This document shows, piece by piece, positions 11,123 through 56,316 of a stretch of 64,000 nucleotides of DNA. The stretch lies in assembly GCF_003334385.1 (NCBI RefSeq), contig NZ_QOWN01000020.1; one strand, given 5' to 3'. The DNA is from Escherichia coli. GTDB lineage: Bacteria; Pseudomonadota; Gammaproteobacteria; Enterobacterales; Enterobacteriaceae. Made by a program: the position numbers and the translations under genes. How positions within the stretch are numbered: the stretch's first letter is position 1; the number at the start of each line of letters is the position of its first letter. The notes below the pieces were generated by a model. The model had not been told where the DNA came from. It saw nothing but the letters and a program-made list of their open reading frames with translations, and ran no database searches.

Positions 11123-11199
<77 letters not shown>

Positions 11200-11256
11200 T
11201 TTAGTCCCGGCGCTTGAGCTGCGGTGGTAGTAATACCGCGTAACAAGATTTGTAGT

Positions 11257-11333
11257 GGTGGCTATAGCTCAGTTGGTAGAGCCCTGGATTGTGATTCCAG
11301 TTGTCGTGGGTTCGAATCCCATTAGCCACCCCA
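11257..11333 (+). tRNA. hisR: tRNA-His (anticodon GTG) with encoded G-1
   Basis: GGTGGCTATAGCTCAGTTGGTAGAGC...TTGTGAT...GGTTCGAATCC...CCACCCCA; extra 5' G characteristic of tRNA-His. Confidence 0.97.
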
Positions 11334-11353
11334 TTATTAGAAGTTGTGACAAT

Positions 11354-11440
11354 GCGAAGGTGGCGGAATTGGTAGACGCGCTAGCTTCAGGTGTTAGTGT
11401 CCTTACGGACGTGGGGGTTCAAGTCCCCCCCCTCGCACCA
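11354..11440 (+). tRNA. leuT: tRNA-Leu (anticodon CAG), class II with long variable arm
   Basis: 87-nt GCGAAGGTGGCGGAATTGGTAGACGCG...CTTCAGGT...GGTTCAAGTCC...CGCACCA. Confidence 0.97.
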
Positions 11441-11482
11441 CGACTTTAAAGAATTGAACTAAAAATTCAAAAAGCAGTATTT

Positions 11483-11559
11483 CGGCGAGTAGCGCAGCTT
11501 GGTAGCGCAACTGGTTTGGGACCAGTGGGTCGGAGGTTCGAATCCTCTCTCGCCGACCA
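11483..11559 (+). tRNA. proM: tRNA-Pro (anticodon TGG)
   Basis: 77-nt CGGCGAGTAGCGCAGCTTGGTAGCGC...GGTTTGGGACC...GGTTCGAATCC...CGCCGACCA. Confidence 0.97.
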
Positions 11560-15188: not shown

Positions 15189-15395
15189 GTAGATGCTCAT
15201 TCCATCTCTTATGTTCGCCTTAGTGCCTCATAAACTCCGGAATGACGCAGAGCCGTTTACGGTGCTTATCGTCCACTGACAGATGTCGCTTATGCCTCAT
15301 CAGACACCATGGACACAACGTTGAGTGAAGCACCCACTTGTTGTCATACAGACCTGTTTTAACGCCTGCTCCGTAATAAGAGCAGGCGTTTTTTT
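15189..15395 (+). ncRNA. glmZ: small RNA GlmZ (activator of glmS translation)
   Basis: Sequence recognised as GlmZ (GTAGATGCTCATTCCATCTCTTATG...); ends in hairpin GCCTGCTC-CGTAATAAG-AGCAGGCG plus T7; convergent with hemY. Confidence 0.85.
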
Positions 15396-22549: not shown

Positions 22550-22870
22550 TTAGCGGAAACTGACTGTTTCACCCGCCTGCTGCGTCGCCGCCTGTTCCAG
22601 CAAATCCCAGAAGGTTTCGCCGCTGCGATCACAAATCCACTCATCGCCTTTCAGGTCAAAATGGTAGCCGCCCTGTTTGGTTGCCAGCCATACCTGGTGC
22701 AGCGGCTCCTGGCGGTTGATAATGATTTTGCTGCCATTCTCAAAGGTAATGGTCAGTACGCCGCCGTTGATTTCGCAGTCGATATCGCTGTCGCCATCCC
22801 AGTCGTCCAGGCGTTCTTCAATGGTCAGCCAGAGTTGATCAGCCAGGCGATGAAATTCACTGTCGTTCAT
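22550..22870 (-). CDS. cyaY: frataxin homolog CyaY (iron-sulfur cluster assembly)
   Basis: 106-aa acidic [34 protein letters not shown]; convergent with cyaA. Confidence 0.93.
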
Positions 22871-23332
22871 TGTTGTATCCTGTTTTTAAGTGATGGCGGC
22901 AGTATAGCGGCATGGGGTCAGGGCTTCAAAGTTTGCACCTCTGCGGCTGCGTTCCGGCACGATTCATCCGTCACCGGAATAATGATGTCTCTGTGTAGCG
23001 AAAGATTTGTCTCTTCATTAGGGCGCAGTTACACCACGTCTTTCCCTGTTTCTGGTAAACATTATGATCAGGTTTACCGAGCGAGCATCCTCACGCTGAC
23101 GGAACTAAAAAAGACAACAAACAAACCACATTGCGATAGTGCATAAAGCCATCCTGGCGCGAGGTGCCGATCACGAAACTACCAGCAAAACATAAATCCC
23201 CACGAGTAAGCGTTATACTCGCAGCATTTCCTCACTTTTCAGACTTCATAAAGAGTCGCTAAACGCTTGCTTTTACGTCTTCTCCTGCGATGATAGAAAG
23301 CAGAAAGCGATGAACTTTACAGGCAATCCATA

Positions 23333-23536
23333 ATGAAAAACGTGTTTAAGGCACTCACTGTATTACTTACTCTCTTCAGCCTGACGGGCTGCGGTCTGAA
23401 AGGTCCGCTCTATTTCCCGCCTGCAGATAAAAACGCACCGCCGCCGACCAAACCGGTAGAGACGCAAACGCAATCCACGGTGCCGGATAAAAACGATCGC
23501 GCCACTGGCGATGGTCCATCCCAGGTGAATTACTAA
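23333..23536 (+). CDS. yifL: small lipoprotein
   Basis: 67-aa ORF with signal peptide and lipobox LTGC; immediately upstream of dapF. Confidence 0.8.
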   Translation: MKNVFKALTVLLTLFSLTGCGLKGPLYFPPADKNAPPPTKPVETQTQSTVPDKNDRATGDGPSQVNY

Positions 23537-23572
23537 AAGTCAGTTTCTGTACCCGCGTGATTGGAGTAAATG

Positions 23573-24397
23573 ATGCAGTTCTCGAAAATGCATGGCCTTG
23601 GCAACGATTTTATGGTCGTCGACGCGGTAACGCAGAATGTCTTTTTTTCACCGGAGCTGATTCGTCGCCTGGCTGATCGGCACCTGGGGGTAGGGTTTGA
23701 CCAACTGCTGGTGGTTGAGCCGCCGTATGATCCTGAACTGGATTTTCACTATCGCATTTTCAATGCTGATGGCAGTGAAGTGGCGCAGTGCGGCAACGGT
23801 GCGCGCTGCTTTGCCCGTTTTGTGCGTCTGAAAGGACTGACCAATAAGCGTGATATCCGCGTCAGCACCGCCAACGGGCGGATGGTTCTGACCGTCACCG
23901 ATGATGATCTGGTCCGCGTAAATATGGGCGAACCCAACTTCGAACCTTCCGCCGTGCCGTTTCGCGCTAACAAAGCGGAAAAGACCTATATTATGCGCGC
24001 CGCCGAGCAGACAATCTTATGCGGCGTGGTGTCGATGGGAAATCCGCATTGCGTGATTCAGGTCGATGATGTCGATACCGCGGCGGTAGAAACGCTTGGT
24101 CCTGTTCTGGAAAGCCACGAGCGTTTTCCGGAGCGCGCCAATATCGGTTTTATGCAAGTGGTTAAGCGCGAGCATATTCGTTTACGCGTTTATGAGCGTG
24201 GGGCAGGAGAAACCCAGGCCTGCGGCAGCGGCGCGTGTGCGGCGGTTGCAGTAGGGATTCAGCAAGGTTTGCTGGCCGAAGAAGTACGCGTGGAACTCCC
24301 CGGCGGTCGTCTTGATATCGCCTGGAAAGGTCCGGGTCACCCGTTATATATGACTGGCCCGGCGGTACATGTCTACGACGGATTTATTCATCTATGA
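23573..24397 (+). CDS. dapF: diaminopimelate epimerase
   Basis: 274-aa ORF (start at second [16 protein letters not shown]); two catalytic Cys motifs (CGNGARC and CGSGACA). Confidence 0.94.

Positions 24398-48434: not shown

Positions 48435-50677
<2,243 letters not shown>

Positions 50678-56132: not shown

Positions 56133-56316
<184 letters not shown>

Follow-up and report, generated by a model that had tools for sequence, protein, structure and literature searches.

An islet deletion scar as the probable cause of the long cyaY–lptM gap in Escherichia coli K-12

The locus between cyaY and lptM (yifL) in Escherichia coli can be compared with accessory hot spots that carry scars, with which it shares fixed flanking genes, variable contents and a site that is empty in most genera. 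Unlike at mobile-element sites, no integrase or duplication was seen with the islet between cyaY and lptM, and about 28 bp of the site are replaced rather than duplicated. The locus also has a counterpart in the annotation record, the PGAP pseudogene 'DKNYY family protein' (Y75_RS25420), which is the same object as the one analyzed here and is frameshifted, internally stopped and C-terminally truncated. Yet this record covers only the 5' stump of one islet gene, and omits the 3' stump of a second one (22918-22994), the junction between the two, the boundaries of the islet and the origin of the stumps as an in-frame fusion. The curated record of strain MG1655 has no pseudogene at the locus and lists yzcX instead. 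The islet proteins are connected with the Pfam family DKNYY (PF13644) by their RefSeq name and by precomputed PF13644 matches for many of their homologues. Two sRNA genes of the same window, GlmZ and EsrE, also lie in long gaps or near gene ends; these score 218 and 320 bits in Rfam, whereas the cyaY–lptM gap has neither an Rfam match at gathering threshold nor a conserved structure. The window is the whole stretch of 64,000 nucleotides analyzed (contig NZ_QOWN01000020.1 of assembly GCF_003334385.1), and its numbering is used throughout; adding 3,971,189 converts it to MG1655 coordinates, in which the gap lies at 3,994,060-3,994,521.

Extent and composition of the gap

The gap between cyaY and lptM occupies positions 22871-23332 (462 bp) and, when used as a query, is 100% identical to that of E. 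coli K-12 W3110. A CyaY-anchored scan with one genome per species yielded 80 loci of the Enterobacteriaceae, 79 of them with both flanking genes. The gap measures 112-146 bp in 54 of these 79 species, mostly 135-139 bp, while 11 species have 147-300 bp and 14 have more than 300 bp; genera with the short gap include Salmonella, Citrobacter, Klebsiella, Kluyvera, Raoultella, Enterobacter and Kosakonia. A preliminary description of this DNA had considered the gap between the divergent cyaY and yifL-dapF units to be long, in which it was right. It had also taken the gap to be free of any assigned feature, which does not hold: in RefSeq, W3110 has a minus-strand pseudogene at 22996-23174 ('DKNYY family protein; frameshifted; internal stop; missing C-terminus', e.g. 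Y75_RS25420), and in MG1655 the plus-strand ORF at 22661-23146 is annotated as yzcX/b3808.

The gap in K-12 is very probably a composite of three pieces, in which two conserved promoter ends enclose an islet stump of about 349 bp. Without the stump, these divergent promoter ends form a gap of ~138 bp in nearly all Enterobacteriaceae. Its features and their flanks are the following.

22550-22870, minus strand: cyaY (frataxin homologue), left flank; from the ORF list and RefSeq annotation
22871-22908, minus strand: ancestral cyaY-proximal core, with the ribosome-binding region, a short 5' UTR and the -10 element TATACT (22906-22901); predicted transcription start at about 22894
22909-23257, minus strand: islet-derived DNA, all that K-12 retains of the accessory islet; from empty versus filled sites and blastn to E. 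coli NCTC11151 and NCCP13963
22918-22994, minus strand: what is left of the 3' end of islet gene B, its final 25 codons and the stop (22918-22920); from blastn, translation and tblastn
22994-22995, no strand: deletion junction; from the blastn break point and base-level alignment
22995-23174, minus strand: what is left of the 5' end of islet gene A, some 60 codons counted from a GTG at 23174 (ATG at 23144); from the RefSeq pseudogene and alignment
23175-23257, minus strand: former upstream (promoter/leader) region of gene A with the hairpin inside, extending from the start of gene A to the right boundary of the islet (MG1655 3,994,364-3,994,446)
23203-23221, no strand: inverted repeat CGAGTA-N7-TACTCG with the loop AGCGTTA, 19 nt
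22661-23146, plus strand: yzcX (b3808), an ORF of 161 aa; from the MG1655 annotation
23258-23332, plus strand: ancestral lptM-proximal core; from conservation and spacing
23333-23536, plus strand: lptM (yifL), right flank; from the ORF list and RefSeq annotation

The cyaY-proximal core has its homologue in the short gaps (135-139 bp) found in Salmonella, Citrobacter, Klebsiella and others, and the sequence GGCAGTATA within it is conserved. A promoter scan detects TTGAAG-17-TATACT on the minus strand (22929-22901), matching the consensus at 9 of 12 positions. The -10 element lies inside the ancestral core and is conserved across genera; the possible -35 element, TTGAAG (22929-22924, minus strand), sits in the last codons of the gene B stump and is thus islet-derived. 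Transcription of cyaY would start near 22894. At the opposite end, two blocks, TTGCTTTT and CCTGCGATGATAGA, reach a conservation of 90% or more when 74 distinct Enterobacteriaceae sequences are aligned. The putative promoter of lptM-dapF comprises a -35 element TTGCTT (23267-23272), a 16-nt spacer and an extended -10 element TGcGATGAT (23286-23294), and would place the start at about 23301, leaving a 5' UTR of some 30 nt in which ACAGGC is the probable ribosome-binding site. This candidate was not called by the consensus scan, in which the counts of promoter-like and terminator-like sites equal the shuffle expectation. Both predicted promoters, of cyaY and of lptM-dapF, have the hexamers, the proper spacing and the conservation in relatives that are looked for in a sigma-70 promoter. 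A sigma-E-type promoter, TGAACTT-N16-TGAAA (23310-23337), was considered and rejected, its -35-like motif not being conserved in Kluyvera, Klebsiella and other genera. A literature search on the cyaY-yifL region, yifL-dapF, LptM, DKNYY and yzcX returned no functional or promoter information for this region.

The expectation that both promoters lie within the gap is thus borne out, insofar as the sequences at its ends are best explained as those of cyaY and lptM-dapF. The further suggestion, that the gap may simply be promoter and leader sequence, holds for the approximately 113 bp at the two ends and fails for the remaining 349 bp or so, which are islet remnant. In its broadest form this suggestion would make the whole 462 bp an extended promoter/leader of the two divergent units, and the conserved promoter-like elements at both ends, together with the cyaY -35-like TTGAAG in islet-derived DNA, are in its favor. 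Yet 112-146 bp suffice in related species, and the middle 349 bp are homologous to the coding and upstream sequence of islet genes that are intact elsewhere. The middle also evolves faster than its flanks, with about 10% divergence and with indels among the scar alleles of E. coli, and an extended promoter is thereby rendered very unlikely.

The islet, its deletion and its distribution

A comparison of empty with filled sites, made inside each of the genera Pseudocitrobacter, Phytobacter and Citrobacter, gave the boundaries of the islet. Towards cyaY the shared sequence stops after GGCAGTATA(A/G)C, and towards lptM it resumes at GCTAAACGCTTGC; between these points about 28 bp of the ancestral gap have given way to the islet. 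It follows from the comparison that in K-12 positions 22871-22908 and 23258-23332 are ancestral, and that 22909-23257 are islet-derived. Several genera have, in their filled or scarred sites, the right end of the former upstream region of gene A (TTTTCAGAYTYCATAAAGA) in common. Neither an integrase nor a tRNA, an IS element or a duplicated target sequence was seen where the islet begins and ends, and the gain of the islet, to judge from the sequence, looks like allelic replacement by flanking homology rather than the work of a mobile element. DKNYY-like genes occupy the site in Escherichia, Pseudocitrobacter, Citrobacter, Phytobacter and Atlantibacter.

In E. coli strains NCTC11151, NCCP13963, R32_14_1F and 2014C-3051, two or three minus-strand genes are found between cyaY and lptM. 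Gene A codes for a protein of about 490-502 aa that starts with VIGTSRQDGFMHYRNVVCLLSCSLFLSSAWGC and has a signal peptide and a lipobox-like AWGC. The product of gene B (about 438-442 aa) has a signal peptide as well and is 35% identical to that of gene A, the two genes being paralogues. Both are predicted to be secreted proteins or lipoproteins, and both bear the RefSeq name "DKNYY family". Homologues of gene A are confined to the Enterobacteriaceae, where they occur in E. coli, E. albertii, Salmonella enterica, Pseudocitrobacter, Atlantibacter, Leminorella and Klebsiella spallanzanii. Direct scans with PF13644 are weak (E = 10 for gene A and E = 0.014 for gene B), and among 13 homologues none has a match at E<=0.001 and three have one at E<=0.1. 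Neither gene has an NCBIfam or PADLOC match, and a sequence search of the PDB returned none. An AlphaFold2 model of an islet protein, of moderate pLDDT (67.9), is all-beta; Foldseek matches this model against the PDB with generic beta-propeller-like folds only (TM<=0.16), which are treated as uninformative.

Many E. coli strains contain an additional gene in the islet, which codes for a DUF3304 protein of 184 aa. Its DNA is absent from K-12. A paralogue with 76% nucleotide identity occurs in another E. coli in the order VgrG-DUF4123-DUF3304-Tle1-VgrG, and the gene itself has a faint match to Tli1a. Because the paralogue adjoins Tle1 in a VgrG cluster, and because of the faint Tli1a match, the DUF3304 gene may be an orphan immunity gene against a type VI phospholipase.

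The remains of the islet in K-12 were aligned with L002, an islet-bearing E. coli sequence. Positions 22571-22994 of the window align by blastn with L002 1028-1451 (94.8% identity), and 22995-23582 align with L002 4001-4595; the identity is 94-95% on either side of 22994|22995. K-12 thus lacks L002 1452-4000, about 2549 bp that are present in islet-bearing E. coli. To the left of the junction, the gene B stump translates to a sequence ending in DIIIPVTDESCRNAAAEVQTLKP and a stop, which is the C-terminus of a 438-aa protein, and tblastn detects residues 418-441 of the gene B protein B441 at the equivalent spot in E. whittamii. To the right of the junction, the gene A stump covers the signal peptide and the former lipobox region. 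Relative to L002, this stump has indels of -2, -4 and 1 nt in K-12, and its translation (VIGTSRQDGFMHYRNVVCLLSFLVPSA and a stop) ends after 27 codons from the GTG, or 17 from the ATG.

The frame across the junction has a varied history among the lineages that share it. An uninterrupted in-frame A-B fusion ORF is found in E. coli VTB96929v (77/87 aa) and in Escherichia sp. E1V33 (75/85 aa). The early stop is identical in K-12, O157 LSU61 and E. whittamii, while EC2257 is frameshifted in another way. The fusion ORF is open in some lineages and variously broken in others, and constraint on the scar is relaxed relative to the flanks. Among the scar alleles of E. coli, positions 22995-23125 contain about 10% substitutions and several indels, whereas 23164-23332 are nearly invariant. 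The hallmarks of a pseudogene, namely homology on both sides of the break, a disrupted frame and relaxed constraint compared to the flanks, are all present in the scar.

A single illegitimate deletion of about 2.5 kb very probably accounts for the junction, by fusing codon ~62 of gene A in frame to the last 25 codons of gene B. Recombination between the paralogous genes was considered as the cause and rejected: the junction pairs residue ~62 of A with residue ~417 of B. These are non-equivalent positions of the paralogues, which argues for an illegitimate deletion and not for recombination between them. In the K-12 lineage the scar later gained its indels and its stop, and the scar allele is the present majority state in E. 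coli.

At least 80% of the K-12 gap is found in one piece in 3837 of 5426 complete E. coli genomes; a match in one piece indicates that the junction is present, because islet-bearing strains match in two pieces. Genes A and B (>=80% of A+B) are found in 1395 of the 5426 genomes, and the DUF3304 segment in 1117. Even those E. coli scar alleles that diverge from K-12 by about 9% share the identical junction. Across the family, the 14 gaps longer than 300 bp comprise seven with substantial A/B-homologous genes, five with scars or fragments of A/B and two with unrelated cargo. Substantial homologues occupy the site in E. albertii, Escherichia sp. MOD1-EC7003, Pseudocitrobacter vendiensis, Citrobacter sp. 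FP75, Phytobacter diazotrophicus and Atlantibacter hermannii. E. whittamii and Escherichia sp. E1V33 have the scar of the K-12 type (462/463 bp), strain E69 has another deletion (421 bp), and short islet remnants are found in Kosakonia sp. S29 and Superficieibacter electus. The unrelated cargo lies in K. michiganensis and in one metagenome-assembled genome. Two other Escherichia species have the majority scar allele of E. coli as well, a pattern that neutrality combined with recombination could explain, but that is no proof of it.

The yzcX reading frame and the inverted repeat

The ORF annotated as yzcX starts antisense inside cyaY and then runs through the stump of gene B, the junction and the stump of gene A. 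Its C-terminal third, the last 50 codons or so, exists only because of the deletion. It may be asked whether yzcX is a genuine protein-coding gene, possibly formed de novo from the scar, in which case the gap would be in part its coding sequence. In support of this stand the MG1655 annotation as 'protein YzcX', the intact 161-aa ORF in O157 LSU61 and the plus-strand transcription implied by ExcludonFinder, which reports a divergent overlap of cyaY and yzcX in at least 50% of 58 MG1655 RNA-seq samples. Against it, the ORF stops after 31, 31, 31, 75 and 112 codons in five other E. coli strains and is of full length only in O157 LSU61; one further strain could not be scored, as a frameshift in cyaY shifts the register. 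The first 70 codons are antisense to cyaY and the last ~50 are deletion-dependent. PGAP does not call yzcX in W3110, despite the 100% identity across the 462-bp gap. No functional data on yzcX are given in the papers found to name it, and those consulted simply list the ORF. The 'divergent excludon' of cyaY and yzcX arises because the annotated genes overlap, and the listing indicates at most that reads fall on both strands. A genuine yzcX gene is thus scarcely credible, and yzcX is best regarded as an artefactual ORF across a deletion scar, antisense to cyaY. The plus-strand ORF had already been called spurious, and antisense to cyaY, in the preliminary description; the overlap is confirmed, and the ORF is not conserved. 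Analyses that pair cyaY and yzcX as regulatory genes, such as the 'excludon' list, inherit this artefact of annotation.

Another plus-strand ORF, which covers the hairpin (23164-23262, GTG start, 32 aa), was rejected as well: it has no properly spaced Shine-Dalgarno sequence and is not conserved outside Escherichia.

The inverted repeat CGAGTA-AGCGTTA-TACTCG is present as first described, except that it ends at 23221 and not at 23222. If the repeat were a functional RNA element, it could belong to an sRNA not yet annotated, to a structure in the yifL-dapF leader or to an intrinsic terminator, and several of its properties would agree with one of these. The 6-bp stem is perfect. Its minus-strand form can be lengthened to 9 pairs, G-U included and 4 of them G-C (23224-23200); the local fold there, with -11.3 kcal/mol and z = -3.2, is stronger than in shuffles, and the terminator scan lists the hairpin among its sites. 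This z value is, however, not an independent test, because the segment was chosen for its repeat. As a plus-strand structure the hairpin reaches -5.8 kcal/mol, and z is -0.28 for the stretch of 143 nt that extends to lptM.

The frequency of such stems is at the level of chance. One perfect 6-bp stem with a loop of 3-10 nt occurs in the gap, versus a mean of 0.94 in 2000 dinucleotide-preserving shuffles, and 53% of the shuffles contain at least one; the density over the whole window is 1.37 per 462 bp. The notion of a hairpin that exceeds chance is thus not sustained, and the gap has 8 short inverted repeats in all, this one included. The stem is not conserved either. In 13 Escherichia sequences, 8 of them distinct, the third pair of the stem is A-U in 3 and unpaired (CGTGTA...TACTCG) in 5 of the distinct sequences. 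The covariation score among these 8 is 0, with no pair changed on both sides, and compensatory change is thus absent. The stem is imperfect in all five non-coli Escherichia species sampled, which indicates that the perfect stem of K-12 was derived by a single change. Within E. coli, the perfect allele is found in at least 4224 genomes and the imperfect one in at least 989, including the type strain ATCC 11775. The islet copies of Pseudocitrobacter and Citrobacter have no such repeat.

Known RNA families give no support to a functional element. The preliminary description recognized no sRNA here and proposed a covariance-model scan; when this was run, no Rfam model matched the gap at its gathering threshold. 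At E<=10 there are three sub-threshold matches in 22700-23500, of which the one in the gap is a viral frameshift element (20.4 bits versus a gathering score of 55), and nothing relevant to the gap was found. As to a terminator, a G+C-rich stem followed directly by a U-run is seen on neither strand: the plus strand continues after the stem with CAGCATTTCC, without a U-run, and the tail after the 9-pair stem of the minus strand, GGATTTATGT, is not a U-run. The terminator scan returned 2 sites versus 1.2 expected, a count that agrees with the shuffles. Moreover, in intact islets the hairpin sits upstream of the gene A start, a position that makes no sense for a terminator. The hairpin also lies upstream of the conserved block with the putative lptM promoter, and would therefore be outside a yifL-dapF leader. 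A functional role of the hairpin in any of the three forms has next to no probability. It is more probably a chance repeat of 6 bp in DNA that once lay upstream of gene A, without a role of its own, and its stem was completed by a single T-to-A change (position 23205) within E. coli.

Residual activity and significance of the scar

The scar is probably without residual function. It is conceivable that the upstream remnant of gene A still fires, and thereby produces a minus-strand non-coding transcript that runs through the stumps into cyaY; this would serve as a long alternative 5' UTR or interfere with the transcription of lptM. Of the sequence preceding the start of gene A, 83 bp are kept and are well conserved within Escherichia. 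In strains with the islet, the distance from the gene B stop to cyaY is only 47 bp, and the scan lists no minus-strand terminator-like site between the junction and cyaY; co-transcription of islet and cyaY is thus plausible. On the other hand, no promoter can be assigned by the consensus scan within 23175-23257, and the scar decays freely. Such a transcript is unlikely on balance, with a modest chance of being real. It is compatible with the origin of the gap as a deletion scar and concerns residual activity only; residual transcription from the old promoter region of the islet would possibly be inconsequential. A broader proposal is that the scar is partly alive, either through a minus-strand transcript into cyaY or through the A-B fusion (77-87 aa, with signal peptide and lipobox), which in lineages where it is open would be expressed as a new mini-lipoprotein. 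This is decidedly improbable.

The finding is an ordinary one of small biological weight, and the scar is already flagged as a pseudogene by RefSeq; a candidate sRNA or regulatory hairpin is struck off. If the minus-strand transcript were real, it would give strains of the K-12 type a strain-specific long 5' UTR of cyaY or interference with lptM. The islet scar accounts for a gap in K-12 that is about three times longer than in related bacteria, and the functional promoter cores of cyaY and lptM-dapF are narrowed to about 38 bp and 75 bp. The locus represents a small, clean case of a polymorphic accessory islet in Escherichia, with a deletion allele that is shared and datable.

Reading frames across the deletion scar

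At the K-12 scar, where a deletion joins the start of gene A to the end of gene B (both minus-strand genes of the cyaY-lptM islet), some lineages retain an uninterrupted A-B fusion ORF, 75-87 aa long and in frame across the junction, and an early stop in the scar ORF is common to K-12, O157 and E. whittamii.

L005 600-1069, open A-B fusion ORF, E. coli VTB96929v
L013 7538-8000, open A-B fusion ORF, Escherichia sp. E1V33
22918-23174 (-), counterpart of the fusion ORF in the window
22661-23146 (+), yzcX (b3808) of MG1655, an ORF antisense to cyaY that spans the deletion junction

The open fusion ORF encodes a signal peptide and a lipobox-like AWGC; its product would be a mini-lipoprotein. The yzcX ORF lacks conservation among E. 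coli; it has been propagated into derived lists, such as an outer-membrane protein list and a "cyaY-yzcX" excludon.

Outside the cyaY-lptM gap, the Rfam scan recovered the following matches, which serve as positive controls that it picks up real RNA genes in the window.

15189-15395 (+), GlmZ
48789-49040 (+), EsrE
56186-56263 (+), naRNA4
11123-11556 (+), four tRNA genes

The block upstream of lptM

Across Enterobacteriaceae genera, the 75 bp located 5' of lptM (23258-23332) exceed in conservation the LptM protein itself, whose amino-acid identity is 52-99%. Within this block, TTGCTTTT and CCTGCGATGATAGA are near-invariant, and we read the conserved blocks as a predicted -35 and extended -10 promoter. 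The same conservation may instead reflect the binding site of a regulator.

DUF3304 and other cargo of the gap

Three-gene islets also carry a DUF3304 gene, the insertion of which was accompanied by a duplication of ~170 bp, comprising the gene A start and its upstream region.

L003 4322-4876, DUF3304 gene of the NCCP 13963 islet
L009 5322-5876, DUF3304 gene of a second three-gene islet
L090 5927-6454, DUF3304 paralogue elsewhere in E. coli, 76% nucleotide identity
L062 1003-8000, unrelated gap cargo, Klebsiella michiganensis
L072 3323-8000, unrelated gap cargo, uncultured Enterobacteriaceae MAG

In NCCP 13963, RefSeq describes cyaY (L003 798-1119) as frameshifted, and gene B likewise, which could represent either real decay or sequencing or assembly error.

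The paralogue is bordered by a DUF4123 adaptor gene on one side and a Tle1 phospholipase effector gene on the other, the whole group being flanked by two VgrG genes. Because of this position between adaptor and effector, the analysis suggests that the islet DUF3304 gene is an orphan Tle1-immunity (Tli1-like) candidate adjoining lptM.

The K. michiganensis cargo (7 kb) consists of an amidohydrolase-like gene and two DHA2/MFS efflux genes, and that of the MAG of an LpxP-like lipid A palmitoleoyltransferase gene and a 478-aa ORF of no assigned identity. The cyaY-lptM site acts like a recurrent variable hot spot.
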